From: Crocosphaera subtropica ATCC 51142
GTDB lineage: Bacteria > Cyanobacteriota > Cyanobacteriia > Cyanobacteriales > Microcystaceae
Assembly: GCF_000017845.1 (NCBI RefSeq)
Contig: NC_010546.1
Coordinates: 3,600,001 to 3,632,000 of the forward strand
Reading direction: 5' to 3'
DNA length: 32,000 bases
The notes beneath the pieces were generated by a model. The model made no database searches. It saw nothing but the letters and a program-made list of their open reading frames with translations, and was not told the origin of the DNA. Shown in pieces: positions 2,441-25,145 of the stretch (within the stretch, counting starts at the first letter, position 1; every line of letters starts with the position of its first letter). The position numbers and the translations under genes are program-made.

Positions 2441-4184
2441 CTTCGGGGGTTTCTTCTTGTAAAGGGGTTTCTCCTTGTAAAATGGCAGTGCGTGCTGTTT
2501 GTGCCAAGTGTACCAAATCTACATGATTGGGAATACCTGGTACTTGAACGCCATAGTTTTCAAAACCTTGACCAATAAAACCATCTAGGACTTCAGAACC
2601 AGCACCTTGATAGTAAACGGGAACGGGACGGTTGGAGTGAGAACCCCACTGATACTTATCTTCAGGGTCAGAGCCAAAATAATGACCAGCAGTAGCAGAA
2701 TCGAAAGCAGTAGTTAAAGCTTCAGCCCCATACTCTCGATAGAGAGCAGGGAAGTCTTCGGTTAAGGTCATGTAGTGGTCGTGATCGGCTGTCACGATTA
2801 AGAGATTCTCTTCCCAACCACCATTTTCCTCAATCCAATCAACTGTGACTTCGACAGTCTCGTCAATATCTCTAAATGTTCCGAGTAAATTATCCATATT
2901 ATTGTCATGGAGTACCCAGTCCATATCGCCCTGTTCTACAGCAAGGAAGAAACCATCTTCATCTTTGCTGAGAAACTCTAAAGAGGCTGCTGTCATTTCA
3001 GCTAGGGTAGGATTCTCATCTGCTTCGCGAGCAATGAAGTCTTCTATTGTTTCGCCAGGCATCAGCGGACGATTGAGATCGGGAGTTTCTCCTGCCCGTT
3101 GAGAAGAGCGATGGGAAAAAGTATTTAAGCCAGTGTTACTGTAGTCGCTGTCTGCGGTTACTAAGGGCAAGTTGCCGTTTTGTCCTCTAGCTCCATAAAG
3201 ACCGAACAAGCGATCGCCATCTTCTGGATTAAGTGCTTCTGCTGCCTCTAACAAAGTCTCTCCAGCATTAGGATTGCGCTCTAAAAAATTGTAGCCGTAG
3301 AGATTATCGCCATCAGGATTATTGCTTAGTTCCTCATAGGTAGACTCAGCAATATAGACAAAGTTAAGCTCACCACCCATTTCTGAGTCCGTGTTGTTGT
3401 AGTCGAGAGGATGACCACCACCGAGAATAAGATCGGGTTGTATTTCTAACAGCATTTGCTGCGTGACGCTATCACCAGCCTCAAATTCCTCTCCTTCTAA
3501 AGCACCTTCAGGGATGCCGTCATCTAGCTTACCTCGGTTGTTAACGTGAGAAGCAGTTGCAGCAGGGGTGGCATGGCTGAAAGGAACGCTAGAAACTGTA
3601 CCTGTAGCTTTTCCTTGTGCTTTGGCAGTTTCGAGAATGGTTTCCACTGGCTGCTCGAAAATGTCAACTCCTAAAGCTCCAGCAAATGTCTTAACTCCCG
3701 AATAGAGAGACGTGCCAGCAGCAGCAGAGTCAGTAAAGTTTTGCTTGATGTATTCCGGGTTAGAACCTTGAATCCAAGGTTGAGGACCGCCTTGCTGAGG
3801 ATCATAACCAACGAGATTACCTACCCCTGGAAAGTCTTCATTGGCATAGGGGTTAAAGCTAGGATCGAAGCCAGTTGAGCTATCATCTGAATCCCTTGGC
3901 AAGGTAAATCCTTCACGCAGTTCGCCTTCACCAGTAACGCGGTCTCTAGGATCTCCCTCAAAGGCTGAATTACCTATGTCACCGTCAATAATTGTTGAAT
4001 AAGTAGTGGCATTGGTGTAGCCTTCTAGTTCTTGAAAGCTCAGTCCTTCGCCTTTACCCTCTGTATAGAAATCCTCTAAAGTATTTCCTTGGTGTCCTTC
4101 GTCAATTTGTTTGGCAATGGCAGCAGCACGAACCATTTCCCAGCCCATACCATCACCGACAATCATAATGACATTCTTGGCCAT
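1917..4184 (-). CDS. phoA: PhoA-family alkaline phosphatase fused to a C-terminal RTX-type Ca-binding cassette (755 aa)
   Basis: The canonical AP motifs appear in order: MIVGDGMG (Asp51 equivalent), [17 protein letters not shown] (D-S-A nucleophile), [14 protein letters not shown] (E/D/H metal ligands), VTADHDH and WGSHSN. The C-terminus carries GGxGxD-like repeats ([28 protein letters not shown]). The catalytic domain starts at residue 5, so there is no signal peptide. Confidence 0.92.
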   Translation of the reverse strand: [755 protein letters not shown]

Positions 4185-5050: not shown

Positions 5051-5575
5051 TTAAGCAAAAGCAAAGTCAGATGAACTCAAATCAGTAGAATCAATGCGTC
5101 GTAAGATAGCTAAATCTTGTCCGAGAGCATTGATGGTTGTATCTAAACCATTTTGAGTTAACATCAAATCGTCAAAACTGAGATCCGTTGCACCAAAGCC
5201 GATCACATCTTCCCCGATGGTAAAGTCAGTGATGGTATTCGCTTCAGTGGGTAAGGCTTCTGCATCAGTAACAATCCAGAATTGATCCATTCCAGAACCA
5301 CCAGTAACAACATTGTTACCTTCACCAGAACCCAGGAATAAGATATCGTCTCCTGAACCTGCAATGATGCGGTTATTGCTACCGGCAAAAATGATGTCAT
5401 CACCGCTACCCAAGTCAATGCGACTGCGATCGCCACCAGGGGCAAAGGTAACATCAACAAAGTCATCACCAGAACCTGCAAAGAGAAGCTGATTATCACC
5501 AATAAATCCACTATCTCCAGGATCTTCGGTGTCGAAGACATCAGCACCAGCACTACCCCGTACCATACTGGGAAC
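5051..5575 (-). repeat. C-terminal RTX/secretion cassette, copy 2 (paralogue of 1917-2440)
   Basis: See copy 1. It ends ...[13 protein letters not shown], whereas copy 1 ends ...[13 protein letters not shown]. Confidence 0.9.
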
Positions 5576-8500
5576 TTCGATGGGTTCGACAGAAGTATCT
5601 TCGATAGTAACCGTTACACTATTCTCAGCAGTTGGTGCATAACCAATTTCATCAATTAAAGTGTAAGTGGTGGTTTCGTCTCCTTCCGTTACTTCATCTG
5701 CAACCGTCGTTAAAGTGATGGTTGCAAAGGTTGCTCCTTCATCGATGGTGATGGCAGAACGAGCTAATTCTCCTGCTTCTGGGGTTAACTGTTCCAAATT
5801 GCTGGCATTGGTTAAAGTAGGAGGAAATTCCACATCTCCGAAGGCATTATCGGAGTCTACCTCAGACCAAACCACCCGTAAACCACCTTCTGGGGCTGCT
5901 TCATCGAGGGTAAAGGTGAGGGTGTAGGTATCAGCATTTTCAGTAACGCTGGTCTTATCAACGGTTAAACCGACTTCAGAAATGATGCCTAAACGGGGAT
6001 CAACATCTAAGGGTTCCTGTAACTGGATCTTGATAATCTCGTTGTTGTCGATATCTCCTTCCCGTCCCATAGAGAAAGGATAGTTATTATCATTGGCCAC
6101 TAAGATGGTTTGCTCATCAATTACTAACACATCTTCAATAGTGACGAAGGGGAACCTAAAGGTGGTGTCCCCATCATTATTAAGGTCATCGGGATCGGCA
6201 ATGTTTAAGAGATCCACTAATTCGGTCTTTTCAACAAAGCCGTTTTCATCCACTTGGGAGAGATCCACCTTAAACAGTTTCTTGAACTCGGCTGCATCTC
6301 CTTGGTTGCCATCCCGTTCAATAATGATAAACTCATTATCGTTAATAGGAGTCATATCACCGATCGCATGGCTACCGTCTTCTAATTCGTAGTAACCCGC
6401 TAACTCATCAAGGAAGCTACCTGAAGCCACATCAAACTCATAGATCCGTAAAGCGTTCTCTGGATCACCCATGACACGCCCTTCTAACAGAGGATAAAGG
6501 GTCATTAAATCAGGACTATACCCTAACCCTTCGTAACCACGAGAACGGCTTAAATTAACTAAATCAGCGTTTTCTGGGTTATCAGGAGAACTAACAAAGG
6601 CTGCAGTGATTTTATCTAAAACTAACCGCGCAGTATCAGGGTTATCAGAGAATACACCATCCACACCCAAAGAATAGAATTGATCGTATTCCGCTTCTGG
6701 GTTGCCGTTGTAGTCATTAGCTAAGAAGACATCTTCATCACGGAAGGTGTAAGGATGAACCTGTAATCCTGCTTCGTGAGCGTCTTCTACGAGGGTTGTG
6801 GGTTCAAGAAGGTTATTATCACTGGTGCCAACAATACGACGTTTAGAGGGGCCAATACCATCAGCGTAAGTAGCAATTTCTGCTAACCCGTCAGGGGTAA
6901 TTAAATCGCTATAGGTGCGATCGTCACCATCGGCCACTAAATCGTAGGGCGCACCACCGCCGCCAATTAACTGAACCAAAGGAATATCAACCCCGGCCTC
7001 TGGCATAATGGTTTCCGAGAGTTCCTGGAGGTTGCTAACTTCAAAGGACTGGATGAAGATGCGATCAGGATCGGTAAATCCTTTTTCGACTAAGGTATCA
7101 ATCAGAATTTGCGAGGTATTGATATTAATGGGAGATCCATCAATAAAGGTTCCTTCTGTGGCAAAGAAGGTAGGGTGTTTGGTTTCGGGATAAATACCGA
7201 TTTGTTCCCCAGTGGTTGCTTCAATTTCATTGACGAGATCGATGATTTCTTCTAGGGTGGGAATTTCAAAGAAGAAATCATATTCGGTATTTTCAGGACG
7301 AATATCAGGAATCCGTTCTACAGCCCGTAATTGCTTAATTTCTTCTAAAGTAAAGTCTTCTGAGAACCAACCGGTAAAACTGGTTCCGTCAATGACTTTG
7401 GTGGTTAAGCGATCGCTAAACTGAGGTAAGAGATAAACGTTAGTTGAAGTTGAACTTCTATCAATGACGTATTCCCCATTTTCATCGAATAAGGGATTAC
7501 CATTTGCATCGGTTTCAACAACGGCTAAAGCGTTCTCATGACGGGCAATAAGTACCCCATCTTTGGTGGGAACTAAGTCCGGTTCGATATAGTCTGCACC
7601 GAATTCAATACCGAGATTATAAGCAGCAATGAGATCCCGACCCAAGAATCCTAAGGTATGTTCAGGGCGATCGCCACTAGCACCCCGATGGGCAATGACT
7701 AAGGGATCTTCGCCGTTTAAGGTGTTGAAGTTGTAAATATTAGGAGTGGCAATAGGTGCGCTGAGTAATTCCCCATCTAAGTTAAATTCCAGGAGATAAG
7801 GACCAAATTCTTCCCCGATCCAAATGCGATCGTCGGTGACTACGATAGATTCAACGTCAAAATCTGCCCCAGTTAAGAATCTTTCGGTGGTGCCTTCACT
7901 AACAATATCAAAGGGGATGAAATTGTTAGGATCAGACAGTTGAATAAAGTCTAAAACCTCTGCCTCGCCGTTTCCTCCGTCTTCAGTTTGGAAGTTAGGA
8001 TCAACTTTGAAGATTCTTAAGAGATAATCATCACTATTGGCTTTCGATCCATACCCATTATCCGATAAAAACCAATAGTTACCATCTTCGGCAAATTGTA
8101 CCCCACTAAATCCTTGTACCGGTTGTTCAGCAAAGGGAACCTCACGGTTATCGGAATTAATGGAAAAACCAGAACCCCCAGGCAGTCCAGGTAAGAAGGT
8201 ATCCGCAGGTAAAGAAGAAAATCCCACTAAGGTAGCAATACTATCAGGATTAACCCCAAACAGGGTTTGATACATGATGTCATAAATTTCGGTATTGTCA
8301 ATGGTAGAAGACAATAACTCCGCATTCATGCCATAGGTTTTGGCTACAATGCTGCCAGGAAAGTCAGGGGTTCCTGCCCAAGCAATCCCAAAATTACCCA
8401 TTGGGCCATCAATACTATCCATAGCAGGAAAAGCGTCCCAGGGAAATTCTTCGCTTCCTGTGCTACCGGTTGCCCCATCTAGATAGTTAGGGGTATCGTT

Positions 8501-10981
8501 AGTGGTGGTAGGGTTAACATTAATGAAAGGAACTTGAGGTTCCGTATCTCCTAAATTTGGGTCACTGGTCAAATTACCAGAAGGACGGCTATAGGGGGCA
8601 AATTGAAAGACCTGCATTCCCCCTGCATCACTATCGGCAGCAGTAATGACTAAGGTATTAGGGTCTTGGGTATTGACATAGTCCATCGCTACTCCGATGG
8701 CAGCATCAGCCCGGCGCATGGCTTCGATGGTTCCAGGGGCATTGTTGCTGTTACCAAAGTTATCCGTTCCCTCTTCTTCTAAGACTGCAAAAAACCCATC
8801 GGGGTCATTTTTGAGGATTTTTAAGGAAGCCTCCAACATTTCCGCCACAGTGGGGGCTGTTGCTACATACAGAGGACTGGGATTATCTGTATTCAGTCCT
8901 AAGACTTCTTCCCTTGTAGCATCAAAGGTAGCATCGGCCGCAAACACCCCTAAGATTTTTTCGGGTAGGGTGTCTCCATTGACCACCTCATCCATTTGTT
9001 CTTCGGTATATACCACCGTATAACCCAAAGATTCAGCTAACTCAATTAAATTGATGCTAGGACGGCGTTCGGGGCGAGTTTCAGAGGCATCAATTTCGGC
9101 GGTAACGTGGAAACCAGTGGTGCCGATGGGTAGCATATAGAGTTCCCCACCCCCCATGATCACGTTGGTTCCGGAGCGAATGACCTGTTCGATGATTTCT
9201 GCGTACTTATCTCTAGCCCGAATATTGTCCCCATCTCGGTTGGTGGTTTTGGCAGCAAAAGCAGCACTTCCGGGTTCGGCTAAATGACCAGATTGGATCA
9301 AGGCGGTTGCTTTTCCAGCGGCGATCGCTTCTTCTAAAATGGTCATGCCCCGTTTTCCGGAGGCTGGAGTCACTTGAGAATTATCTCCATTGAGGCCAAA
9401 GGACTCATTAAACACTTTTACCCCATTAGCATGGGTCACGGCACCAGCATTAGAAGTTCCAGTTAATTGGTCTTCCATGTGGCCCAGATAAACCCCGGCG
9501 TTGGTCATGTTATCCCAGTTGAGGCGACCATCGGGACCGTGATCAATATTCCGTAGGGCCATGTAATGGGAAGGACTGGTACCGTCAGGGTGAATAAAGA
9601 TGACGTTCCCTGTGTTTTTGGTAGGAGTGGGGGCTGGGGTAGGGGCGGAATTACGAGCTTCTAATTCTACCTCGAATAAGGTTTCGTACATCAACTCGTA
9701 AATTCCTGTGTTATCTACCGTTGCAGGAAGTTTATCGGCATTGACCCCGTGAGCTTTGGCCACGATGGAACCGCTAAAGTCAGGGGTTCCAGCCCAAGCG
9801 ATACCAAAGTTAAACACATCCCCATCCACATCAGGGGCAGCTACAAAGGGGTCTGTATCGGCTCCAGTCTGCCCATCGAGGGGAACGGGTCGAGATTCGG
9901 TGGTAGGGTTATTATTAATCGTACCGACAGTTTGATCAGGATTACGGGGATCTCGTACTTGTAACCCACCGGCATCACTATCGGCGGCGGTAATAATTAA
10001 GCTGTTTTCGTACTTTTCATAGAATTCTAAAGCAACTCCAATGGCTGCATCACCGCGACGGGTTCCTTCTAACGTACCGGCTGCATTGTTATTGTTGCCA
10101 AAGTTATCGCTTCCTTCTTCTTCAACTACCGTAAATGACCCATTCTGGAAGTTAGGATGACTTTCGGCTAACTTTTGGGTCACTTCTAGCATTTCTGCTA
10201 CTGTAGGAGCCGTTTCTACATAAAGGGGTAATCCTCTTTCGGCTAACACTTCCTCTGGGCGATCGTTAAAGGTGTGAATGGGGGCAAATACCCCTAATAC
10301 TTTAGTGGGAGGTGTGGGGTATGTAGCGGGATCGAGCAACTCATACAGTTGCTCTTCAGTGTAGACAACGGTATAGCCTAAGCTTTCCGCCAGTTCGATT
10401 AGATTCTCGGTAGGACGACGTAAAGGGTTGGTGCTTAACGCATCTAATTCGGCTGCTGTGCCATGAAAGCCATCGGTTCCAATAGGTAAGAGGTTGAGTT
10501 CACCACCTCCCATAATAAAGTCCACTCCAGACTCGATCACTTGTTTGGCAATATCAGCTAACCGTTGCCGAGGAGGAATGCGCTGGCCATCAACTTCTAT
10601 TTCTCCCACTTGGGCTACAAAAGCAGCCGTTCCAGGTTCGTAAATGGCCCCAGATTGAACTAAAGCGGTTACCTTATTGGCTTCAACCGCTTCCTGCATA
10701 ATGGTTTTGCCTACATTGCCCGATAGAGGAACAATGGGGGTGTTACCTTCTTCGAGTCCGAAGGATTCTGCGTACACTTTTGCCCCGGTTGCATGGGTGA
10801 CAGCCCCCCCATTAGAAGTACCACCCAGTTGATCTTCCATATGACCGAGATAGACACCGGCGTGAGAAAGTTTATCCCAGTTGAGGTGGCCATCGGGTCC
10901 GTGATCCACAAATCGAGCAAAGCCGTAGTGAGAGGGGCTTGTGCCATCAGGATGAATAAAGATGACATGATTATTGTTCAT
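5051..10981 (-). CDS. 1976-aa multi-domain secreted-type phosphoesterase: two tandem atypical AP-like domains, a phytase-like propeller interrupted by a GDPD domain, a Calx-beta-like domain and an RTX cassette
   Basis: It is a single uninterrupted ORF. The domain motifs are listed in the sub-features below. There is no signal peptide, because the sequence [15 protein letters not shown] runs straight into the first catalytic domain. Confidence 0.9.
   Translation of the reverse strand: [1976 protein letters not shown]
5590..5990 (-). other. Calx-beta-like Ca-binding beta-sandwich
   Basis: The segment is [27 protein letters not shown]...[32 protein letters not shown]. It shows the G(E)T..i.v..v.D...EgdEt pattern. 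Confidence 0.5.
6040..6615 (-). other. Phytase-like region, C-terminal part (continuation after the GDPD insert)
   Basis: The motifs are [28 protein letters not shown] and [13 protein letters not shown]. The last is the DNNF-type terminal motif that also appears in the gene 4 phytase-like domain as [10 protein letters not shown]. Confidence 0.45.
6620..7700 (-). other. Glycerophosphodiester phosphodiesterase (GDPD, GlpQ-like) domain
   Basis: [19 protein letters not shown]...[24 protein letters not shown] closely parallels the E. coli GlpQ segment [15 protein letters not shown]...DYLEQDLVMTKDD.LVVLHD. The C-terminal segment VHPYTFRDE...[11 protein letters not shown] is also typical of the family. 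Confidence 0.85.
7705..8245 (-). other. Phytase-like (esterase-like activity of phytase) region, N-terminal part
   Basis: The motifs are [22 protein letters not shown] and [19 protein letters not shown]. They resemble the GGISGL...LSDD / EG..... pattern of the phytase-like family. Confidence 0.5.
8255..9615 (-). other. AP-superfamily (PhoA-like, atypical) domain B, an internal tandem paralogue of domain A
   Basis: The same motif series is repeated after a PTPAPTP linker: [58 protein letters not shown] and [18 protein letters not shown]. Confidence 0.65.
9650..10981 (-). other. AP-superfamily (PhoA-like, atypical) domain A
   Basis: [14 protein letters not shown] aligns with the GDGMG region. 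[17 protein letters not shown] aligns with the E. coli PhoA segment [31 protein letters not shown] and [10 protein letters not shown] sit in the positions of the metal-ligand segments. Confidence 0.65.
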
Positions 10982-11568: not shown

Positions 11569-12700
11569 ATGATTCGTTTTGCTAGTTTTAATGCTTCTTT
11601 AAACCGTAATTCAGAAGGTGAATTAATTGCGGATTTATTGACCCCTAATAATGAACAAGGTCAAACGGTTGCTGAGATTATTCAACGGGTCAACCCTGAT
11701 GTTATTTTAATTAACGAATTTGATTTTGATGGAGTCGGTGATGCTGCTCAACTATACAGTAATAACTATTTAAACGTTAGTCAAAATGGGGTTAATTCCA
11801 TTGACTATCCTTATTTTTATGTTGCCCCATCTAACACAGGAATTGCATCAGGATTTGACTTAGATAACAATGGAGAAGTTGTTACAAATCCTGGAGAATT
11901 TGGCTATGGAAATGATGCTTTCGGCTTTGGCAACTTTCCTGGTCAATTTGGTATGGCAGTGTATTCAAAATATCCCATTGACTTTAGTAATGTTCGGACA
12001 TTTCAGACTTTTTTATGGAAGGATATGCCGGATGCTTTATTACCGGTTGATTCGGTTAGGGGGGAATCTTATTATTCAGAGGAAGAGTTAAATAGTTTTC
12101 GTTTATCTTCTAAGAGTCATTGGGATTTACCAATATTAATTGATGGAGAAACTGTCCACTTTTTAGTCAGTCATCCCACTCCGCCGGTATTTGATGGAGA
12201 AGAGGATAGAAATGGGAGAAGAAACCACGATGAAATCCGTTTTTGGTCAGATTATATTACTCCTGGAAAGGGGGGTTATATTTATGATGATCAAGGAAAC
12301 TTTGGGGGGTTAAAAGTAGGGGAAAAGTTTGTCATTGCAGGGGATCAAAATGCTGATCCTTTCGATGGAGATAGTGTTAACAATGCCATTAATCAATTAT
12401 TAGATAATCCTTATATTAATACCTCTGTTACCCCAGAAAGTGAGGGGGGTGTAGATGCTTCTAATAGACAAGGGGGAGTTAATGATAATCATATCGGTGA
12501 TCCTAAGTTTGACACAGCAGACTTTAATGATAATAACCCTGGTAATTTACGGGTAGATTATGTGTTACCTTCTGAAAATTTAGAGATTAAAGAAACTGGG
12601 GTTTTTTGGCCAACTTCTGATGATCCATTATTTGATTTAGTGGGAAATTTTCCGTTTCCTAGTTCTGATCATCGTTTAGTTTATACAGATGTTAATGTGA
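11569..12700 (+). other. Endonuclease/exonuclease/phosphatase (EEP) domain
   Basis: The motifs are [46 protein letters not shown] and the terminal [11 protein letters not shown]. Together they form the EEP N / E / D / D-N / SDH series. Confidence 0.8.
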
Positions 12701-15700
12701 AAAAGTCAATGATTGATTCAATTCGTAAAACAGTTCAAAGTATTAACTTTATCGGTGAGGTTAATTTCCCAACGGGTTTAACCTTTGAAGGGACAGAGTT
12801 TGGCGGTATTTCTGGTTTAGTTTATGATCACTTTAATGGGGTTTACTATGGTTTATCTGATGATCGCAGTCAGTTGAATGATGCCCGTTTTTATAGCCTC
12901 AATATCGATTTAAGTGATGGCATTTTAGACGGACAAGATATTACGTTTAATGGGGTTACCACGTTATTAGATGAAGATGGCAACCCATTTATTAATAATC
13001 GTATTGATCCAGAAGGGATTGCGTTAACCTCACGAGGAACTCTATTTATTTCTTCAGAAGGCAATGCTAATACATTACTTGATCCATTTGTCAATGAGTT
13101 TTCTTTATCTGGACAACAGTTTAATACGTTACCAGTCCCTTCTAAATTTTTACCAATAGCCGATCAAAGTAGTGGGATTCGGAATAATCAAGCCTTTGAA
13201 AGTTTAACTATTACTCCCGATGAACGATATTTATATACTGCTGTAGAAAATGCGTTATGGCAAGATGGAATTAACTCAACCCTAGAGAATGAAAGTGCGG
13301 TTAGAATTTTACAATATGACCTAAAAACGGGAGAAGCAGCTAAAGAATTTTTATATTTTACCGCTCCTATTCCTAATGATTCTAATCCCTCTGGGGGATT
13401 TGCTGATAATGGGTTAGTAGAATTATTAGCGATTGATAATACAGGAACTTTCTTAGCATTAGAACGCTCATTTGCTGCTGGTGTAGGTAACAATATTCGC
13501 CTCTATCAAGTTAACCTACAGGGGGCGACAGATATCAGTCAGTTTGATAGTTTAGCCATTGATCCTGATAATCCTAATGATGGCCTTTTTGATGTGGATT
13601 CGGTGGCACAAAAACGCTTATTAATTGATTTTGATGAATTAGGTATAACTTTAGATAACAGCGAAGCTTTAGCCTTCGGTCCAACCTTACCAAATGGTAA
13701 TCAATCTTTAATTGTTGTCAGTGATAACAATTTTAATGACAGTCAGTTTACTCAATTTTTGGCCTTTGAACTCGATATTAATTCTATTCCCTTTGTCACC
13801 CCAACCTTAGAAACCCCTTCAGAAATTCGTTATGATGATCCCACTGATTCAGAAGTAGTAGAAGGTTCGGACTCTGATGATCCAGCAATTTATATTCATC
13901 CCGATGATGTTGAACAAAGTTTAGTCATTACAGCATTAAAAAATGGGGGATTAGCAGTTTATGATTTAGACGGAAACGAACTACAAAAAATTGCCCCTGA
14001 TAATATTCGTTATAACAATGTGGATCTGGTTTATGGGTTTAACTTAGATGGGGAAAGTATAGATATCGCAGTTGTCAGCGATCGCCGAAATGATACGTTA
14101 GTAATCTTTGAAATTGATCCCACCACACAACAGTTGACGGATATCACATCTCCTAACATTTTAGAAAGCATTTTTGGGGTAGATGATGGCGAAGCAACTG
14201 CTTATGGTTTAGCGACTTATACCAGTCCCGTTACTGGAGAAGTTTATACCTTTGTTTCCCAAGCAGATGGAGATCAAATTGCCCAATTAAAATTAATATC
14301 AGACGGACAAGGTAACATTACGGCTGAAATTGTTCGTACTTTATCTGTTCCCATTCCTGATGGGGGTGAGGTAGAAGATGCACAAGTTGAAGGAATGGTC
14401 GTTGATCGAGAATTAGGATACTTATATGTAGGACAAGAAGGGTTCGGAATTTGGAAATTTTATGCCGAACCTAATAGCAGTGAGATAGGAACAATAGTTG
14501 ATACAGTAAAAGATATTAATCCTGATAGTAACTTAACCGCAGATGTAGAAGGATTAACCATTTATTATGGAGAAGATGGTCAAGGTTATTTACTCGCATC
14601 CAGTCAGGGAGATAGTTCTTTTGCTGTTTACGATCGCCAAGGAAGTAACTCTTATTTAGGTAACTTTGTGGTAGGAGAAAATAATGGAATCGATGGTGTA
14701 GAAGAATCTGACGGGGCCGATATTATTAATGTTGCGTTAGGGGATAAGTTTCCCAAAGGACTATTAGTCGTTCATGATGGATCTAATGAAAATGCAACGG
14801 TATTTCAAGATCCAGAAGATAGAGAAATTCAGAATTTTAACACCAATTTTAAATACATTGATTTGGAAGATTTAAGCGCAACTTTACCCTTCTTTAAACT
14901 AAATACAAAAGGATATGATCCCCGAAACCCTGTCCCCAACTCCCTTATCAATGGTATTGCAAGCGGTGACACCACCCAAAACAGTACGGTGTTATGGGCC
15001 CGAAGTACCTTCACAGGAGACGTAACCATTGAATACTCCACCGATGCTAACTTTTCCTCTATCATTGCAACCGAAACCCTCACTGTTACCGATCCTACCC
15101 TTCCCGTTAAAGTAGAAATTGAGAACTTAACCCCCAATACCCAATACTACTATCGTGTGACAGATGCCGCCAAAGATACCGCTATCGGGGAGTTTAAAAC
15201 GTCTGCGGAACTGGGAACTAACGTAGGGTTAACCTTTGGAGTCAGTGGAGACTGGAGAGGAGAGTTGGCCCCCTATCCTGCGATCGCCAATGCAAGCGAT
15301 CGGGATCTGGACTTTTTCGTTGAACATGGGGATACCATCTATGCAGACATCGAGTCTGATGCAGTGAAAAACCCCGATGGAACCCGTAAACAACAAGCAG
15401 AAACCATAGAAGAGTATCGGGCCAAACATAGCGAGGTGTATGACTCCCGTTTCGGGTTCAACTTTTGGGAGGAGTTACGGGCCAATACTTCCATCCTTGC
15501 AACCATCGACGATCACGAAGTCATCAACGACTTTGCCGGAGGGGCTAATGCAGACACCGATGATCGCTTCAGCGAAACAGAAGGGTTGATCAACGACACG
15601 GAACTCTTTGAAAATGGAATGCAAACCTTCCAGGAATATAATCCCCTCAGAGACGAATTTTATGGGGATGTAGGGGACGAAAGATTTAACGGGGAACGGA

Positions 15701-17739
15701 AACTCTATCGCTATAGTAACTATGGTAGTGATGCTGCTGTATTTGTGTTAGATACTCGTTCCTTTCGTGATGATGCGTTAGAGGGTCCCGAAAACTTTTT
15801 AGATACAGGCGATCGCTTAGAGGTTTTAAATCAGTCTTTGACGCAAGATAGAACCTTATTAGGAAGTGTGCAACTTGCGGATCTTAAACAAGACTTATTA
15901 GACGCAGAAAATAATGGGATTACCTGGAAATTTGTTATGGTTCCTGAACCGATGCAAAACATCTTTCCGGGTATCAATACGGATGCGTTTGAAGGGTATG
16001 GAAAAGAACGCACAGAAATACTCAAATTTATCAACGAAAATAGCATTGACAATGTGGTTTTTGTGGCTGCTGATGTTCACACCACTTTTGTTAATAATCT
16101 CACTTATCAAGAAGAACCAGAAGGGGAACAAATTGCTACAAATGCGTTTGAAATAACGACCGGTGCCGTTGCTTTTGAGCAACCAACTGGAGAAATATTA
16201 GGTAATTTATTTACAGCAGGAAATGCTAGTTTACAAACCTTTTATGATTCTCTACCGATTGCACCAGATACTGATGACCTTCCTAATGATAAAGACGATT
16301 TTGTTAAACAAGCAATCAACAATGTTTTATTAAATTCATTAGGATTTGATCCGTTAGGACTGAATAATAATCTACCCCAAGCAGAAGGATTAATTGATGC
16401 TACTTTGATACAAGGTGATTATTTTGTCGGTCATACTTATGGTTGGACAGAGTTTGATATTGACCCAGAAACACAGCAATTGAAGGTAATCACCTACGGA
16501 ATTGAGGCTTATTCTGAAGATGAGTTACTCGCTGATATTGACAATATTACTTCTCGTCAGCCGAAAATTGTTAGTGAATTTGTTGTTAATTCTACTGTCA
16601 ATGGTTCTTTTCCTAAAACGGTTAACGGAACAGATAATGATGACTTTATTGACTCAGTTGATCCTGATAATGGTTTCAATTTTAATGGCGATAATCAAAT
16701 TCTTTTTGCTGGTTTAGGTAATGATTTTATTGACGTTACTTTTGCACCAGGAAACAACATAATTAACTTAGAAGAGGGTGATGATATTGTCTTTTCAGGA
16801 AGCAATAATACGTTAAATGGAGGAGAAGGGAAAGACACCTTTTTTGTGGGAACTGGTGGAGGAAATAACACCATTACCGGCGGTGAAAATGCTGATGATT
16901 TTGTCATTGTCACCGATGAACAAGACTTACCCATTGAACCGAATATTATTACCGATTTTAATCCGTCACAAGGAGATAAAATCAGCTTACTAAACACCAG
17001 TTTTGATTATAGCGATCGCGGATCATCTTGGAATACCATTCAAGACAATAATGACACCGTTATCACTGTCTTTGATCAACGGGTTGCTATCCTCAAAAAT
17101 ACCGATGCAGATAGCTTGACTTCCGATAATTTCTTCTTTTCTAATACCAATAATAATAATAATAATGTAACCCCTATCACTGAAGAGGAAAACGAACCGA
17201 TCAATACTGATAATTCAAATGCCACAAATTCCGATCCAATTATAGAAAATAATGACCCCAATAATATCCCTCAAAGTGATGATCAAGGAGAATTATTTGA
17301 CTTAAGAGAATTTGTTGGAAGACAAGTTCAAGCTGACTTTTTAGTCAGTCGGAGTGCTAGTTACAACAACTTTATTGGCTTTTATGAAATTGATGATTTG
17401 ACAGGAAGAATTGATGGTTTAACCCCAGGAGAAGAGGGTTATCAAGAAGCTGCTTTATCCCGTCAGGTATCAGCAATCGGTTTACAGGTTGAGGACAATG
17501 AGACTGCTAATATAACAGAATTTTTCACAGGAGGAAGTATTTATGCTCCTTTTATGATTGTTAAAGGTACCCCTGAAACTTTGAGAAAATCATCATCAAT
17601 TTACTTCCCATTTTTAGGAGCAAATAAAGACAATAAAGATCGTGTTCGTCTCCTAGCTCAAAATGTATTTGGGTTTGAAGATTCTAGGGATTTTGACTAC
17701 AATGATCTTATCGTTGAGACAACTTTAACAGTTATTTAG
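11569..17739 (+). CDS. 2056-aa multi-domain secreted-type phosphoesterase: EEP, phytase-like, beta-propeller phytase, PhoD-like, RTX cassette, poly-Asn linker and DUF4114
   Basis: It is a single uninterrupted ORF. The domain motifs are listed in the sub-features below. There is no signal peptide or Tat motif, because [14 protein letters not shown] is already the EEP core. Confidence 0.9.
   Translation: [2056 protein letters not shown]
12740..13790 (+). other. Phytase-like (esterase-like activity of phytase) domain
   Basis: The motifs are [61 protein letters not shown] and [20 protein letters not shown]. Confidence 0.65.
13800..14870 (+). other. Beta-propeller phytase (3-phytase, BPP) domain
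   Basis: It runs collinear with Bacillus PhyC as I recall it. [11 protein letters not shown] matches [28 protein letters not shown] and IDIAVVSDR follow. [25 protein letters not shown] matches [59 protein letters not shown] matches [34 protein letters not shown]. Confidence 0.9.
14900..16520 (+). other. PhoD-like metallophosphatase domain
   Basis: [19 protein letters not shown] is the PhoD N-terminal GVASGDP..sVvLWTR motif. [41 protein letters not shown] and FVAADVHT complete the series. Confidence 0.8.
16627..17142 (+). repeat. RTX/secretion cassette, diverged third copy, here internal rather than C-terminal
   Basis: [24 protein letters not shown]...[11 protein letters not shown]...[45 protein letters not shown]...[12 protein letters not shown] is collinear with the cassettes of genes 2 and 3. 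Confidence 0.8.
17149..17166 (+). repeat. (AAT)6 in-frame microsatellite encoding poly-Asn
   Basis: I read it directly as ccAATAATAATAATAATAATgt. It lies within an N/D/P/E-rich low-complexity linker (about 17140-17280). Confidence 0.95.
17284..17736 (+). other. DUF4114-like C-terminal domain
   Basis: The terminal segment [20 protein letters not shown] matches the remembered DUF4114 signature (GFED....D.D.ND.v). An upstream segment reads [19 protein letters not shown]. Confidence 0.6.
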
Positions 17740-17956: not shown

Positions 17957-18973
17957 TTAGAAAGATTGTTTTCTCAATCCTGACTTACCCCCTACAGTGT
18001 ACCAATATTCCCATTGTCCTCCACTGGCCGTAGACCAGTCCTTTAAATCAAAATGACCACTTCCTTCGGGTGTTCCTGAAATTCGATAGGTTTTCACCGC
18101 TTTTCCATCATTATCCCAAATTAAAGGCCAGCCTGGTTCCATTTGTTCTGGTAAAGCTCCATTGGTCTGTAAAAAATAAGCATCTTGTCCACTCTTAGTT
18201 CCATTGCCAAACACCTGAGCAATACCTTGCTCATCGATCGCCATAAAAGCCCCTTCTTCGAGTCCAATGCCATAATGATCAAGTTGATTATTATCTTCAT
18301 GAATCACCTTAGCTAATAAACCCAATAGCCTTCCATAGCGAGTTTCTGGGTTCCATTGATTCAGTCGATCTAAATGGGTATCTGTCAGCACTTGGTGTAG
18401 GTAAGGGACTTGTAGAAAATCACTTCGATGAATATGTTCTGTATTATAGTGAAAGGGATCATTAAGAATTTCTGAACTAATAATTCCTTGATGGTCAGGA
18501 GAATAGTAATAGTCTCCTAAAATCGCCATTCCTGCACTGGTTCCAGCAATGGGGATTTTTTTTTCATTAATCACATAATTTAGGGTTTCCTCTGTTTTAG
18601 TGCCTTGCCAATATTCTTGATAATCATTTTGGTCGCCTCCTGCAATAAACAAAGCATCAGCATCAAGAATATAGTCCGTGACTTTTGAATTATTAGCTGC
18701 TTCCCGACTATCAATGGAAAGTTCGGCCGCAGAATGGATCCAATCTCGATAATGTTGACAAATCCAATCAGCTTGTCTGCCAATTCCTCCTACCCGAAGC
18801 ACTAAATATTTACCCCCGTTGGCTCGTTTTAAAAACCATTGGGTTGCCTCATGTTCTCCTGATTTATTCCCTTCGGCTCCCCCAATTAATAAACAGCCTG
18901 ATTGTGCTTTAATTGACTGATAGTCTCTGCCTTCACAAGCTAAATAATAATCGAAATCATATCGACTTCCCAT
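17957..18973 (-). CDS. Peptidase family S51 / cyanophycinase-like protein (338 aa)
   Basis: ALFIAGGDQNDY, IPIAGTSAGMAILG (a GxSxG-type nucleophile elbow as in cyanophycinase/PepE) and THLDRLNQWNPETRYGRLLGLLA (the D.H....R.GRL segment) support the call. There is no signal peptide. Confidence 0.65.
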   Translation of the reverse strand: MGSRYDFDYYLACEGRDYQSIKAQSGCLLIGGAEGNKSGEHEATQWFLKRANGGKYLVLRVGGIGRQADWICQHYRDWIHSAAELSIDSREAANNSKVTDYILDADALFIAGGDQNDYQEYWQGTKTEETLNYVINEKKIPIAGTSAGMAILGDYYYSPDHQGIISSEILNDPFHYNTEHIHRSDFLQVPYLHQVLTDTHLDRLNQWNPETRYGRLLGLLAKVIHEDNNQLDHYGIGLEEGAFMAIDEQGIAQVFGNGTKSGQDAYFLQTNGALPEQMEPGWPLIWDNDGKAVKTYRISGTPEGSGHFDLKDWSTASGGQWEYWYTVGGKSGLRKQSF

Positions 18974-19097: not shown

Positions 19098-20306
19098 TTA
19101 GGAAATTAAAGTTAGAAATCTTTGAATCACGAAAGCATTAACAATATCGATAAAAAATGCCCCTACTAAGGGAACGATAATAAAAGCTTGAGATGAACCT
19201 CCAAATTGTGCCGTAACCGCTGTCATATTAGCGATCGCCGTTGGTGTTGCTCCCAATGTTAAGCCCGAATAACCGGCACAAATCACGGCCGCATCATAGT
19301 CTCTTCCCATCACAGGAAAAACTAAAAAAATCGTATAAATAATACAAACTATTAACTGCGTTAATAGCACAACGGCAATAGAAACACCAATATCGAGTAA
19401 CGTCCACAGTTGTAAACTCATCAATGAAATTGCTAAAAATAAACCCAAACTGACATCAGAAATTAATGCCAAAGACGGGGTATCACTCGGCCAAGGAAAG
19501 CGTTTAAACAGCAATGGAATGGTATTAGTCAGAATAATTCCTGCTAATAAACAAGTCACAAAATCAGGCAATCTTAAACCTATTAAAGTAGACAAATAAT
19601 TGATCTGAATTCCTAAACCAATGGTTATCCCAATGACTAACAGAGAATTGAGCATTGTATTATAATCAATTATTACATCTTTTTCTTGATGTTTAATACC
19701 AATTGTGAGGTTTTCGTCTTGGTCCTTGGTATTAAGTCGATGTTTGACAATCAACCATTTGGCAATGGGCCCGCCGACGATACCCCCTAACACTAAACCA
19801 AAGGTAGCACTGGCAATGCCAATTTCTAGGGCATTGGCAATATTGTAGGTTTCCGCAAAAATAGGGGACCAAGCGATCGCTGTTCCATGACCGCCACTGA
19901 GGGACACTGAACCTGAAAGGATGCCGATGGGCCGCTCTAACCCCATTAAAGCGGCCATCCCTAACCCTGTCAAATTTTGTAAGAAAAGATAACTCACCGC
20001 TATAGCTAAAAGAATTAACAAGGGTTTTCCCCCTTGCAGCAAGGTTTTCAGTTTAGAAGAGAGTCCAATAGTTGTAAAAAAGATAATCAAAAATAAATCA
20101 CGAATATTGAGAGCAAATTCAATTTCAACTTGAAAAACAGCATAAAGCAAACCAAAAACTAAGGACGCTAAAACTCCACCTGAAACTGCATCAGGGATAT
20201 TAAAATTTTGAAGAAATTTAATTTTTTTCGTCAAATACTTCCCAAGATACAACACTAAAATAGCGATAATAATGGTCTGTCGAATATCGAGTAAAATAGT
20301 ATTCAT
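19098..20306 (-). CDS. gltS: Sodium/glutamate symporter GltS (402 aa)
   Basis: The protein is polytopic and matches E. coli GltS in length (about 401 aa). The N-terminus is collinear: ...LGKYLTKKIKFLQNFNIPDAVSGGVL...IRDLFLIIFFTTIGLSSKL against LGRKLVHSVSFLKKYTIPEPVAGGLL...LRDPLMLAFFATIGLNA. Confidence 0.85.
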   Translation of the reverse strand: MNTILLDIRQTIIIAILVLYLGKYLTKKIKFLQNFNIPDAVSGGVLASLVFGLLYAVFQVEIEFALNIRDLFLIIFFTTIGLSSKLKTLLQGGKPLLILLAIAVSYLFLQNLTGLGMAALMGLERPIGILSGSVSLSGGHGTAIAWSPIFAETYNIANALEIGIASATFGLVLGGIVGGPIAKWLIVKHRLNTKDQDENLTIGIKHQEKDVIIDYNTMLNSLLVIGITIGLGIQINYLSTLIGLRLPDFVTCLLAGIILTNTIPLLFKRFPWPSDTPSLALISDVSLGLFLAISLMSLQLWTLLDIGVSIAVVLLTQLIVCIIYTIFLVFPVMGRDYDAAVICAGYSGLTLGATPTAIANMTAVTAQFGGSSQAFIIVPLVGAFFIDIVNAFVIQRFLTLIS

Positions 20307-20350: not shown

Positions 20351-22345
20351 TTAATAATTATTAGGCTGTTGATGCTCTGTTAAATCTGAGGCAATTTCCC
20401 ACCACTTTGTCTGAAATGGTTTACGTCGAGTATTGGTTCCACAATGAATTTCTCCCCGTCCTAAGAAATAGGGTTCCCAATTATCAATAAAATAACAAGT
20501 ACAACCAAATGGTTCTAAAAGATTTTTTACGCAAGCTTCTATTTGACATTCTTCATTGATTTTCGGACCAAAAGGTTTGGGAATAGCTAAATGATTATCT
20601 AACACTAACATATTCACCATATTAGGGAAAAAAGTTTCGGCCCGTTTCTGATGACCTGCCCCTTGGAATAACCCTGGAATATCAATAATATCATCTTCTC
20701 TTAGTCCTAATTTCTGTTTTAAAATGTCTCGATTCCAGTCAATATACCTTTGAAACCGTTGATTATCTTGGAGCAATTCTTGATTTGATAAAAGATCAGT
20801 GATAGACATATCACCGATCCGAGTTCTTTGAGTCAATTCAGTTTGATGTTGCTCCTTTAGAGCTTGAATAATTTCATAATATTTATTAGGACTGGTCAAA
20901 ATTAGTTTAAATCCCTTTGCTGTCTTAGTTGGAACAAAAGTCATAAATTCATCGATATGTCCCACTTCTAACCAATCACAAAAAAGCTCAATGGGCGGTT
21001 GAATTTTTTGAGCATAAAGAAAATCTCTAATATTTTTCACCATTCTGGTTGAATATTCTGGGGCATCAGAATGATTTCCTCCGAATAAAATTCTCCCGAA
21101 CGGATAATCAACCCCATCAACTGTCACAGGGGGACTTACTTCTAAATTACCAAAAGAATCAAGGGTAGTTGCTTCTGGATTTTTGCGTGTTATATGGCCG
21201 ACATCAATTCCTAAAAGTTCTTCTTCGGGAAACTCATCTAAGCCCCGATCTCTAGGAGAATTTAAGACAACATACATAAAGTGACCAGGAGATTCACTAT
21301 AGCCAAATTCAATTTCATCTTGCATCCAGCGATCGTTGCGATAACGGATAGAAGAAACCACTTCTAATTGAGCTTTAGAGGCTCCAACGACAAAGCGCAT
21401 TTGTTCAATCATCTTATAATTCGAACCCGATGCAATCCTTGCAATATAAACAGTTTGAGGACTCAAAGTATGGGGAGTCATAATCCAAGGAGCGACTTGA
21501 AATCTTACCCGATCTGTATATAAAATTTCATTGTCTTTAACCAAAGATAAATTAATAAAAATGATGCCATCAAAATCAATATCCCGATAATGAAGTCCTT
21601 CGACGGCTAAAAAGATATCTTTCGTAATGTCTTGTTTTATTAAATTGCCTTGTTGGTGTCCATGGCCTACTAATTCATGACCATAATTCGTTTCCAGTTG
21701 ATCAAAAATACGAAGATAAGGGGCATTTTCTTCACTAACCCAGACCCTTAAATCATATTGAGAAGGTAACCGTTTCGGGCCAACTTTACGAACCACCATG
21801 AGACTACAATCTTTAATTTCTAGTAATCCTTTGAGGTGATAATCTTCCTCGTGAGCTTCTGGTCGATCGCGATCGCTATTAACTAAAAGAATTGCTCCAT
21901 AACCGTCTTTGCCTTGTTTCCAATTCCCTTTATTTGGGTTATTTTCTTCCACCACCCCATCCCGATCGGCATCTACATCTAAACAGATTCTTAATACAGT
22001 AAAATATAAGCCGTAACTAACAATCAAGTTTTGTTGTTTATCTAACAAATTGATGGTTAAAGAGCGGTCATCTAATTCTTCACTATAAGTATTTCCTTGC
22101 ACAATTAAACTATCAGCCAAGTCTTTGGGGGAAATTAGGACTTTTTCTGATAAAAGTACCGATAAATTGGCTTGTTTAACCCTTAATTCTCCTCTTACTT
22201 TTAATTCAACCCATTCAACAGAAGAATCAATTAAATGTTTAATTGGAATATTAATAAGTTGACCAGTGACTAAAACAACTTCATGAGAAGAACGATTCAC
22301 ACGAGAATTGGAAGAGAGAGGGGTAATCTTGAAGTTTCTCATCAA
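20351..22345 (-). CDS. Protein-arginine deiminase (PAD), animal-type three-domain length (664 aa)
   Basis: Three catalytic segments are present. RWMQDEIEFGY corresponds to mammalian RWMQDEMEIGY (Asp350). VGHIDEFMTFVP corresponds to GHVDEFLSFVP (His471/Asp473). GEIHCGTNTRRKPFQTKWWE corresponds to GEVHCGTNVRRKPFSFKWW (Cys645). The overall length equals that of the mammalian PADs (about 663 aa). Confidence 0.9.
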   Translation of the reverse strand: MMRNFKITPLSSNSRVNRSSHEVVLVTGQLINIPIKHLIDSSVEWVELKVRGELRVKQANLSVLLSEKVLISPKDLADSLIVQGNTYSEELDDRSLTINLLDKQQNLIVSYGLYFTVLRICLDVDADRDGVVEENNPNKGNWKQGKDGYGAILLVNSDRDRPEAHEEDYHLKGLLEIKDCSLMVVRKVGPKRLPSQYDLRVWVSEENAPYLRIFDQLETNYGHELVGHGHQQGNLIKQDITKDIFLAVEGLHYRDIDFDGIIFINLSLVKDNEILYTDRVRFQVAPWIMTPHTLSPQTVYIARIASGSNYKMIEQMRFVVGASKAQLEVVSSIRYRNDRWMQDEIEFGYSESPGHFMYVVLNSPRDRGLDEFPEEELLGIDVGHITRKNPEATTLDSFGNLEVSPPVTVDGVDYPFGRILFGGNHSDAPEYSTRMVKNIRDFLYAQKIQPPIELFCDWLEVGHIDEFMTFVPTKTAKGFKLILTSPNKYYEIIQALKEQHQTELTQRTRIGDMSITDLLSNQELLQDNQRFQRYIDWNRDILKQKLGLREDDIIDIPGLFQGAGHQKRAETFFPNMVNMLVLDNHLAIPKPFGPKINEECQIEACVKNLLEPFGCTCYFIDNWEPYFLGRGEIHCGTNTRRKPFQTKWWEIASDLTEHQQPNNY
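21869..21876. repeat. HIP1 octamer GCGATCGC (representative copy)
   Basis: Exact copies that I verified start at 2292, 3210, 5426, 14078, 15280, 17897, 21869, 26177, 27844 and 31620. More are visible elsewhere in the window. HIP1 is a known hallmark of many cyanobacterial genomes. Confidence 0.95.
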
Positions 22346-22808: not shown

Positions 22809-23234
22809 TTAGCTATAAAAAGCTAAATTAATCTTCTGAAAAAGAACGTAAATCAACTTAATTAAAATACCAATATAAAAAAGTAAAAAACCGATAAAAC
22901 TAGAAAGATAGCCAAAAATAATGATATCAGTAATAGTACAATCTAACAATAATATTTTCAATTGAATTGTTAAGTAAAATCGAATAATTTTATAGCAAAA
23001 AATAAAGTGATTAACGTCAATTTTTGCTTTTGAGTAATCAAAATTATCCCGAATTAAACTGAGAATTAGTGACCAGTAAAGGGTTGCTGCTGCTTGTCCT
23101 GCAAAGAAAAAAATAAAAGTTAGTAAAATAGTAACCCAAGTGCTAACATACATTCCCATTAAGGCAACTGATAAAGCGGTTAATGCCATAGAAACGATGA
23201 TAGTGACTGGTTCAGGTCTATATTTACTACTCAT
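22809..23234 (-). CDS. Small hypothetical membrane protein (141 aa, about 4 hydrophobic segments)
   Basis: This is an ORF-track entry. It has hydrophobic stretches (VTIIVSMALTALSVALMGMYV, ILLTFIFFFAGQAAATLYWSLILSLI and IIIFGYLSSFIGFLLFYIGILIKLIYVLF). It is very AT-rich, I recognise no family, and I see no clear RBS. Confidence 0.45.
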   Translation of the reverse strand: MSSKYRPEPVTIIVSMALTALSVALMGMYVSTWVTILLTFIFFFAGQAAATLYWSLILSLIRDNFDYSKAKIDVNHFIFCYKIIRFYLTIQLKILLLDCTITDIIIFGYLSSFIGFLLFYIGILIKLIYVLFQKINLAFYS

Positions 23235-23362: not shown

Positions 23363-23905
23363 TTAAAAACTTCCCCAAAACCAATTACCAGGAGATTGAG
23401 AATCTTCACTGTAGAAAAACTCATGTAGTAACGTTGTTAATTCATCTTTTGTCAAATATCCATCGTTATTTAAGTCTAAATGGATAAAAGCCTTATGCGC
23501 TTCCTCCGCTTCAATTTCATAGATTTGATAGAATTTTTTAAATTCATCTATATTCACCTGATTATCTTGGGAAAAATCCATAGCCTTTAAGCTGATATTG
23601 ATTAAAGCTTTTTGAATATAGGAGGCTTCAAAGCTATCTAGCATTTGTTCTAAATACCATAACCATTCAGCTTCTGTAATTTTTCCATCGCCATTTCTAT
23701 CTGCCCAAACTTTTAAGCGGTCACCAAAACCCATCCAAAAAAAATAAAGTTCTTCGTACTCAGGTGTTCCCCATTTCCATCCTCTGATGTTAGTAATTTC
23801 ATGGATGACTCGCTCAAAATCGTTTCGAGTTAGTATCCCATCATGATTACGATCTAAAATTCGGAATAAATGGCGTAATTTTCTTTTTCTAATTGGGTTA
23901 AGCAT
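23363..23905 (-). CDS. EF-hand calcium-binding protein with four EF-hand loops (180 aa)
   Basis: Four 12-residue loops fit the DxDxDG pattern: DRNHDGILTRND, DRNGDGKITEAE, DFSQDNQVNIDE and DLNNDGYLTKDE. Confidence 0.8.
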   Translation of the reverse strand: MLNPIRKRKLRHLFRILDRNHDGILTRNDFERVIHEITNIRGWKWGTPEYEELYFFWMGFGDRLKVWADRNGDGKITEAEWLWYLEQMLDSFEASYIQKALINISLKAMDFSQDNQVNIDEFKKFYQIYEIEAEEAHKAFIHLDLNNDGYLTKDELTTLLHEFFYSEDSQSPGNWFWGSF

Positions 23906-24011: not shown

Positions 24012-24044
24012 GAAAAAAAAAGCACCCCCAAACTTGGGAGTGCT
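24012..24044 (-). terminator. Rho-independent terminator of psbA
   Basis: The minus-strand RNA reads AGCACUCCC-aaguuu-GGGGGUGCU (one G.U pair) and is followed by a U8-9 tract (A-run 24013-24021 on the plus strand). It begins 30 nt after the stop codon. Confidence 0.9.
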
Positions 24045-24074
24045 TAGTGTATTATTCAGTTATTATCAAAGGAA

Positions 24075-25145
24075 TTAACCATTGATAACAGGAGCAGATA
24101 CAGGCTCAGCAGAAGCTAAGTCTAAGGGGAAGTTGTGAGCGTTACGCTCGTGCATTACTTCCATTCCGATTCCTGCACGGTTTAATACATCAGCCCAGGT
24201 TCCGATTACACGGCCTTGAGAATCAAGGATAGACTGGTTGAAGTTAAATCCGTTTAAGTTGAAAGCCATGGTGGATACACCCATTGCGGTGAACCAGATA
24301 CCGATTACAGGCCATGCACCTAAGAAGAAGTGTAAAGCACGGCTGTTGTTGAAGGATGCGTATTGGAAGATTAAACGACCAAAGTAACCGTGAGCAGCTA
24401 CGATGTTGTAGGTTTCTTCTTCTTGTCCGAACTTGTAACCGTAGTTTTGAGACTCGATTTCAGTGGTTTCACGAACTAAAGAAGAGGTTACTAAGGAACC
24501 GTGCATAGCGGAGAATAAAGATCCACCGAATACACCAGCAACACCCAACATATGGAAGGGGTGCATCAAGATGTTGTGTTCAGCTTGGAACACGAACATG
24601 AAGTTGAAGGTTCCGGAGATTCCTAAAGGCATACCATCAGAGAAAGAACCTTGTCCGATGGGGTAGATTAAGAATACTGCGGTCGCTGCGGATACAGGTG
24701 CAGAGTAGGCAACACAGATCCAAGGACGCATTCCTAAACGGTAGGAAAGTTCCCACTGACGACCCATGTAGCAAAAGATTCCGATTAAGAAGTGGAAAAT
24801 TACTAACTGGTAAGGACCGCCATTGTAAAGCCACTCATCAAGTGAAGCAGCTTCCCAGATGGGATAGAAGTGTAGACCGATAGCATTAGAAGAAGGTACG
24901 ACTGCACCGGAAACGATGTTGTTTCCGTAGAGTAAAGAACCAGCTACAGGCTCACGGATACCATCGATGTCCACAGGAGGAGCAGCGATGAAAGCAATGA
25001 TGAAACAGGTGGTAGCAGTTAAGAGGGTGGGGATCATTAAGGTACCGAACCAACCGACATAGATGCGGTTGTTGGTGCTGGTCACCCACTGACAAAACTG
25101 TTCCCACAAGGAAACGCTCTCGCGTTGTTGTAAGGTAGTAGTCAT
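24075..25145 (-). CDS. psbA: Photosystem II D1 protein precursor, Gln-130 (D1:1-type) form
   Basis: The D1 sequence is unmistakable ([23 protein letters not shown]...[20 protein letters not shown]). I counted residue 130 as Q ([10 protein letters not shown]). A 12-aa C-terminal extension follows Ala344. Confidence 0.99.

Follow-up and report, generated by a model that had tools for sequence, protein, structure and literature searches.

A three-domain protein-arginine deiminase of the cyanobacterial and animal type in Crocosphaera subtropica ATCC 51142

Here we describe the gene for a protein-arginine deiminase (PAD, or PADI) in a stretch of 32,000 nucleotides from Crocosphaera subtropica ATCC 51142 (positions 3,600,001 to 3,632,000 of the forward strand of contig NC_010546.1), hereafter called the window, whose own coordinates are used throughout. 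The PAD coding sequence lies on the minus strand at 20351..22342, with an ATG start codon at 22342 and a stop codon at 20351-20353, and encodes a protein of 663 amino acids. A single long open reading frame (ORF) covers the region (20351..22345, minus strand); its mechanical start is a TTG at 22345, which gives 664 amino acids and has the ATG as its second codon, and the 663-residue version with the ATG start is the gene call of the public assembly and of the public records. The encoded sequence matches, at 100% identity, that of P0001, the NCBI entry for a 'protein-arginine deiminase family protein [Crocosphaera subtropica]'. A preliminary description of the stretch, made from its letters alone, had recognized a PAD in a cyanobacterium, a reading with which the identical C. 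subtropica protein, 21 HIP1 sites and a psbA gene in the window all agree. The features on which that recognition relied are likewise present: the length of a mammalian PAD (663/664 residues, compared with 664-670 in PAD3 and PAD4 chains), the three segments quoted as catalytic, namely RWMQDEIEFGY (residues 338-348), GHIDEFMTFVP (461-471) and GEIHCGTNTRRKPFQTKWW (630-648), and the KPF..KWW motif, a C-terminal tail common to the window PAD and human PAD2.

The family assignment is clear. The PAD catalytic domain (Pfam PF03068) spans residues 274-649 (20396..21523, minus strand; E 1.7e-152), with 508.5 bits, far over the cut-off of 25, and covering positions 2-395 of the 395 in the profile; the middle domain, PAD_M (PF08527), spans residues 118-269, or 119-270 in the 664-residue numbering (21536..21991, minus strand; E 4.3e-46), with 156.9 bits where the cut-off stands at 24.8. 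The same Pfam search gave no other credible match and, read down to E<=1, none to the agmatine deiminase, arginine deiminase or Porphyromonas-type families, and a search of NCBIfam returned 0 matches. Homology is strongest with three-domain PADs: each of the 27 matches in the Protein Data Bank (PDB) is a vertebrate PAD, human PAD2 being the best solved relative (phmmer, E 1.8e-153, residues 45-652), followed in order by PAD1, PAD3, PAD4 and PAD6. E-values for PAD2, PAD1, PAD3 and PAD4 run from 1e-153 to 1e-124; PAD6 is the weakest (E 1e-91).

The N-terminal domain is more divergent. The Pfam model for PAD_N (PF08526) found no match in the window PAD at E<=1, and in a large protein collection every cyanobacterial homolog shows PF08527 and PF03068 only, to which animal homologs add PF08526. 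Pfam PAD_N was likewise found to miss cyanobacterial sequences in the detailed description of the cyanobacterial/animal PADI class, in which a degenerate PAD_N was recovered by profile-profile search (Cummings et al. 2021, Mol Biol Evol 39:msab317; PMC8826395). In the window PAD, residues 1-116 (21995..22342, minus strand) form a PAD_N-like all-beta domain, as identified by hhalign and by a model of the domain on its own. When residues 1-116 of 38 cyanobacterial PADs were compared with 10 animal PADs, hhalign returned a probability of 97.3% (E 2.3e-11, 99 columns). The full-length AlphaFold2 (AF2) model, with a predicted local distance difference test score (pLDDT) of 85.0 and a predicted template-modelling score of 0.82, holds a pLDDT of 80-95 over the first 150 residues and aligns end to end with PAD2 (4n2n; 680 columns, template-modelling (TM) scores 0.85/0.86, E 3.6e-76). 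Residues 1-116 modelled separately, from an input alignment of cyanobacterial sequences only, reached a pLDDT of 85.5; a Foldseek search with this model against 350,542 PDB chains placed PAD chains in all of the top 50 positions (TMq 0.53-0.72), PAD2 and PADI6 being the best matches (TMq 0.65-0.72, E ~1e-7). Together, the hhalign comparison and the two models establish the three-domain architecture (PAD_N, PAD_M, PAD_C) in the window PAD, which belongs with the cyanobacterial and animal enzymes that Cummings et al. (2021) call 'Clade Ai'. The first identification as an animal-type three-domain PAD is thus correct; it is also already known, since the protein is annotated as a member of the PAD family and the PADI of this species has figured in a published analysis.

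Residue correspondence with PAD2 was established through a HMMER alignment, and the columns were checked in an alignment of 48 sequences (38 cyanobacterial, 10 animal); the PAD2 calcium-ligand positions are those attributed to Slade et al. 2015, and are partly corroborated by other sources. The four catalytic residues, D342, H462, D464 and C634 (PAD2 D351, H471, D473 and C647), do not vary in any of the 48 sequences. Of the three segments named above, RWMQDEIEFGY (21299..21331, minus strand) holds catalytic D342 together with the gate residue R338, the Ca1 ligands Q341 and E345 and the Ca2 ligand E343; GHIDEFMTFVP (20930..20962, minus strand) holds H462 and D464; and GEIHCGTNTRRKPFQTKWW (20399..20455, minus strand) holds the nucleophile, C634. 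Both gate residues, R338 and W339 (PAD2 R347 and W348), and the substrate-binding R364 (PAD2 R373) are kept. In the alignment, animals and the Crocosphaera/Rippkaea/Aphanothece clade have Arg in the PAD2 R347 column, where most of the remaining three-domain cyanobacterial PADs have Pro.

Most of the calcium ligands are preserved. The window PAD retains the Ca1 ligands Q341, E345 and E401, the Ca6 ligands of PAD_M (D124, D126, D128, V130 and E132), the Ca3/Ca4 ligands N155, D157, D159, D167, E175 and D178 within the Ca3-5 region, and the switch residue D380, equivalent to PAD2 D389. At the Ca2 site E343, S362 and D365 are retained and PAD2 D370 is replaced by N361 (21260..21262, minus strand), a lineage-specific substitution; at the Ca5 site D167 is retained, and PAD2 D169 falls within a deletion of three residues, without counterpart. 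In the D370 column Asn occurs only in the window PAD and in its two closest relatives, P0002 and P0004; Asp stands there in 33 of the remaining 35 cyanobacterial sequences, Glu in 2 of them, and Asp in all 10 animal sequences. Three deviations, namely Asn at D370, Glu at D177 and a short Ca3-5 loop, are shared by the window PAD with P0002 and P0004 only (85-88% identical to it); compared with the remaining cyanobacterial PADs, the loop has lost 3-5 residues. The loops modelled with low confidence by AF2 (159-164 and 367-376) coincide with the Ca3-5 and Ca2 loops.

An Asn at D370, and a shortened Ca3-5 loop devoid of a D169 equivalent, are what might be expected of a catalytically dead or calcium-insensitive PAD-like scaffold analogous to mammalian PADI6; this is highly improbable, given that the window PAD keeps the four catalytic residues, R338, W339, R364 and every ligand of Ca1, Ca4 and Ca6, that the side-chain oxygen of Asn can still coordinate Ca2+, and that PAD6 is the weakest PAD match (E 1e-91, versus 1e-153 for PAD2). 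We favour instead, with a probability of roughly 0.9, a gene that encodes a soluble, probably cytoplasmic, three-domain calcium-dependent peptidylarginine deiminase. Cytoplasmic location is likely because the protein has no hydrophobic segment (maximum 19-residue hydropathy, 1.37). Activity and calcium dependence are extrapolated from an assayed ortholog, the enzyme of Cyanothece PCC 8801 (P0014), 59% identical to the window PAD over 96% of its length; this enzyme citrullinates proteins and has an absolute dependence on Ca2+ (Cummings et al. 2021). If the mechanism follows that of human PAD2 and PAD4, as homology suggests, Ca2+ bound at the middle-domain sites and at Ca1/Ca2 would order the active-site loops, so that R338 swings out of the way and the nucleophile C634 moves into place; peptidyl-arginine would then be held by D342 and D464 while C634 attacks the guanidinium carbon, with H462 as the general acid/base, and the products would be ammonia and peptidyl-citrulline.

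Phylogenetic placement agrees with the domain content. In a neighbour-joining tree of 47 taxa over 628 columns (100 bootstraps), a crude method, with two-domain bacterial PADs translated from their loci as outgroup, the window PAD falls inside a three-domain cyanobacterial group that is monophyletic with 100% support. It groups with P0002 and P0004 (100% bootstrap), and these are joined first by Crocosphaera XPORK-15E plus Aphanothece sacrum (100%) and then by Rippkaea PCC 8801 plus Cyanothece UBA12306 (100%). Animals are also monophyletic (99%), but an exclusive clade of animals plus cyanobacteria receives 43% bootstrap only, owing to a few non-cyanobacterial sequences that branch nearby. These last comprise loci from Reyranellaceae, Gastranaerophilales, Kapaibacterium, Fibrobacteres and Lachnotalea (L041, L042, L044, L069 and L074), all placed close to the animals and to the three-domain cyanobacterial PADs, several with long N-terminal regions. 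The three-domain type is common to late-diverging cyanobacteria and animals, on which Cummings et al. (2021) based a proposal of horizontal transfer; the preliminary description was right to mention such a proposal, and C. subtropica is included in that work, its PADI being one of the six cyanobacterial sequences in the calcium-site analysis. The view of the preliminary description that true PADs are rare in bacteria needs qualification: the group is small, but not tiny, with PADI present in 11% of cyanobacterial species (Cummings et al. 2021) and more than 100 three-domain cyanobacterial PAD clusters in the large protein collection. As a separate observation, PAD homologs that are 38% identical over residues ~115-653, with catalytic residues intact, occur on three contigs of archaeal metagenome-assembled genomes (L047, L048 and L049; Methanophagales / ANME-1); Cummings et al. 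(2021) dismissed their single archaeal PADI match as misattribution.

The composition of the gene is host-like. With a guanine-plus-cytosine (GC) content of 0.359, and 0.253 at third codon positions (GC3), the PAD gene stands in a window of GC 0.40 beside several neighbours at 0.370-0.380 (GC3 0.27), and its codon-usage distance to the other genes (0.104) is mid-range. The AT-rich segment remarked on earlier exists in a weak sense, the 20-24 kb stretch having a GC of 0.30-0.38 with its lowest values in a 141-residue ORF and in intergenic DNA; the PAD gene itself shows no meaningful anomaly. AT-richness as a sign of horizontal transfer was accordingly rejected, GC, GC3 and codon usage being within the range of the neighbours. 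The HIP1 palindrome (GCGATCGC), whose abundance is a typical signature of cyanobacterial genomes, occurs in 21 copies in the window against 0.13 expected, one of them inside the PAD gene (21869-21876) and none between 21877 and 26176. A recent horizontal import, or an assembly contaminant, with the AT-rich surroundings marking an island, could draw on the fact that no low-GC run in the window is longer than that at 20-24 kb and that PAD neighbourhoods differ among genera. Its probability is nonetheless close to nil: besides the host-like composition and the internal HIP1 site, no tRNA, flanking repeat or transposase ORF was found around PAD in the window, the PAD tree follows cyanobacterial lineages with 100% support, and an independent sequencing run carries the identical PAD gene followed by gltS and the S51 peptidase gene in matching order. 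In our preferred reading the PAD gene is a long-resident one, vertically inherited in the Crocosphaera/Aphanothece/Rippkaea lineage, and not a recent import.

Around PAD, the minus strand reads psbA, an EF-hand gene, the 141-residue ORF, a gap of 466 bp, PAD, a gap of 44 bp, gltS, a gap of 124 bp and a gene for an S51-family peptidase. Downstream, the sodium/glutamate symporter gene gltS (19098..20306) is recognized by TIGR00210 (547.9 bits, cut-off 310.75) as well as by Pfam, and is possibly co-transcribed with PAD, a terminator-like site having been sought in the 44-bp gap between them and none found. The S51 peptidase (17957..18973; PF03575, E 7.8e-09) scores 49.5 bits with the cyanophycinase model TIGR02069, below the equivalog cut-off of 126.6, and is a distant relative of cyanophycinase. 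Upstream, the hydrophobic 141-residue ORF (22809..23234; GC 0.277) has no Pfam or NCBIfam match and is of doubtful gene status. The EF-hand gene (23363..23905), about 1 kb upstream of PAD, encodes 180 residues with several motifs (EF-hand_1, E 5.9e-20). At 24020..25145, the psbA (D1) copy is followed by a strong terminator-like hairpin (24045-24020, 11-bp stem); the raised GC3 of psbA (0.485) and its distinct codon usage (root-mean-square deviation 0.296) fit a highly expressed gene. A promoter scan gave 23 sites where 22.6 are expected by chance, and no promoter is therefore claimed.

To place this arrangement in context, it was compared with 79 related loci (42 of them three-domain; designated here by L numbers) from a genome collection in which the C. 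subtropica genome itself is not included. None of 13 neighbouring window proteins recurs beside PAD in the 79 loci, except a giant phosphatase (2 loci) and generic ABC ATPases (4 loci), and clustering of the ORFs that flank the 42 three-domain loci yielded no widely common partner. The largest flanking family, a MASE1 histidine kinase, adjoins 10 of these 42 loci, mostly in Nostocales (e.g. L006, 2937-4961), and its adjacency may reflect shared synteny rather than a functional link. An EF-hand gene stands beside PAD in only one other locus, on the opposite strand (L025, 1895-2128); EF-hand linkage as a general feature of PAD was thus rejected, and its proximity in the window is probably a coincidence. 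PCC 8801 and Crocosphaera XPORK-15E share no PAD neighbours with the window. A conserved gene context was rejected in turn, no partner being kept across the 79 loci; with no widely conserved neighbours, PAD is effectively a stand-alone gene, and its context is no reliable clue to substrate.

The exception, on a short evolutionary scale, is the run of PAD, gltS and S51, from which a metabolic rather than regulatory role could be argued, the enzyme being co-expressed with the symporter and the peptidase and acting on arginine-rich nitrogen stores (cyanophycin or its beta-Asp-Arg dipeptides) or on short peptides, and not on folded proteins. The three genes are co-directional, separated by 44 and 124 bp with no convincing terminator between PAD and gltS, the S51 protein is distantly related to cyanophycinase, and the closest relatives retain either PAD-gltS (L081, 88% identical) or PAD-S51 (L082, 85% identical). 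Yet L001, at 72% identity, has already lost the linkage, as has every other locus, and so it cannot explain why the family is conserved; the S51 protein is far under the equivalog cut-off for cyanophycinase (49.5 versus 126.6 bits), and the assayed ortholog modifies proteins. We judge such a role very unlikely. A more novel proposal is that the PAD of the C. subtropica sub-lineage has an altered calcium threshold and a role in arginine and nitrogen-storage turnover of this unicellular diazotroph, instead of protein regulation. It draws on the clustering of the changes in the calcium switch (Asn at D370, Glu at D177, short Ca3-5 loop) and on their coincidence with the lineage-restricted PAD-gltS-S51 arrangement and, in the window genome, with the nearby EF-hand gene; we hold it to be very unlikely.

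Our preferred reading, a calcium-dependent peptidylarginine deiminase, has its own weak points. Searches of the literature on cyanobacterial PADs and on ATCC 51142 for function or expression turned up only the work of Cummings et al. (2021) and one review, with no later study of cyanobacterial PAD function and no such data for the window PAD gene. The substitutions at D370 and D177, and a loop 3-5 residues shorter than in the assayed ortholog and animal PADs, mean that the affinity or threshold of this enzyme for Ca2+ could differ from theirs, as judged from these residues. Nor does any neighbour conserved across the 79 loci point to a substrate or pathway.

Two further features of the surroundings are recorded for their own sake. 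In L081 (3491-15168) the PAD-gltS pair is set amid four genes for MscS-type mechanosensitive channels and an MgtC gene. Farther from PAD, the window contains a cluster of multi-phosphatase proteins of very large size, which has the look of a locus for phosphorus scavenging in which domains are fused in unusual ways: an alkaline phosphatase of 755 amino acids (1917..4184, minus strand), a fusion of alkaline phosphatase, GDPD and phytase-like domains (1976 amino acids; 5051..10981, minus strand), and a fusion of EEP nuclease/phosphatase, phytase-like, beta-propeller phytase and PhoD domains (2056 amino acids; 11569..17739, plus strand). A related giant phytase-like protein adjoins the PAD-S51 pair in L082.

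The wider interest of this gene lies in its family. It has been proposed that animals owe citrullination, a modification central to gene regulation, neutrophil extracellular trap formation and autoimmunity, to the three-domain PADIs of cyanobacteria, and any such PADI in a strain open to genetic manipulation might lead to the native cyanobacterial function. On that function the window locus itself adds nothing; the new points are minor, namely the calcium-site substitutions and the lack of a conserved gene partner.

Compared with known systems, the most distant are the Porphyromonas gingivalis enzyme (PPAD), agmatine deiminase and arginine deiminase, which share the same general chemistry, a Cys nucleophile acting on a guanidinium group; PPAD is Ca2+-independent. 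In their phyletic distribution all three differ from PADIs (Cummings et al. 2021). The two-domain PADIs of bacteria and fungi (actinobacterial, proteobacterial and early cyanobacterial among them) are true homologs in PAD_C and its catalytic residues, at 30-41% identity, but their matches start at about residue 100-120 of the window PAD and the tree excludes them from the clade of three-domain cyanobacterial PADs; neither PAD_N nor the Ca2/Ca4 synapomorphies are present in them (Cummings et al. 2021). In our data two-domain bacterial PADs show Asp in the PAD2 D389 column of a MAFFT alignment, and their mechanical ORFs place some 100 residues ahead of the DVDADRDG motif; both observations differ from Cummings et al. 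(2021) and may be artefacts of alignment or ORF calling.

Human PAD2 (PDB 4N20-4N2N series) is much closer, having in common with the window PAD its length, three domains, fold (TM 0.85), 38-39% identity, catalytic tetrad, R347, Ca1, Ca4 and Ca6 ligands and KPF..KWW tail. The N domains are only ~17-21% identical, below Pfam detection; the window PAD has Asn at D370 and Glu at D177 and lacks D169 through its three-residue loop deletion, and at the position of PAD2 E158 it carries Asp, which most of the aligned animal sequences have too. The window PAD is, moreover, a prokaryotic protein, without histone substrates. The closest characterized system is the cyanoPADI of PCC 8801 (Rippkaea orientalis), which lies within the same 100%-supported subclade and shows the same three domains and the same Pfam pattern (PAD_M and PAD found, PAD_N missed), the same catalytic residues, a similar Ca3-5 pattern and a retained R347. 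The genes next to its PAD differ from those of the window, it has Asp at both D370 and D177 where the window PAD has Asn and Glu, and the Ca3-5 loop of the window PAD is three residues shorter. The PCC 8801 enzyme too is without an evident D169 equivalent in this loop, and it is Ca2+-dependent.

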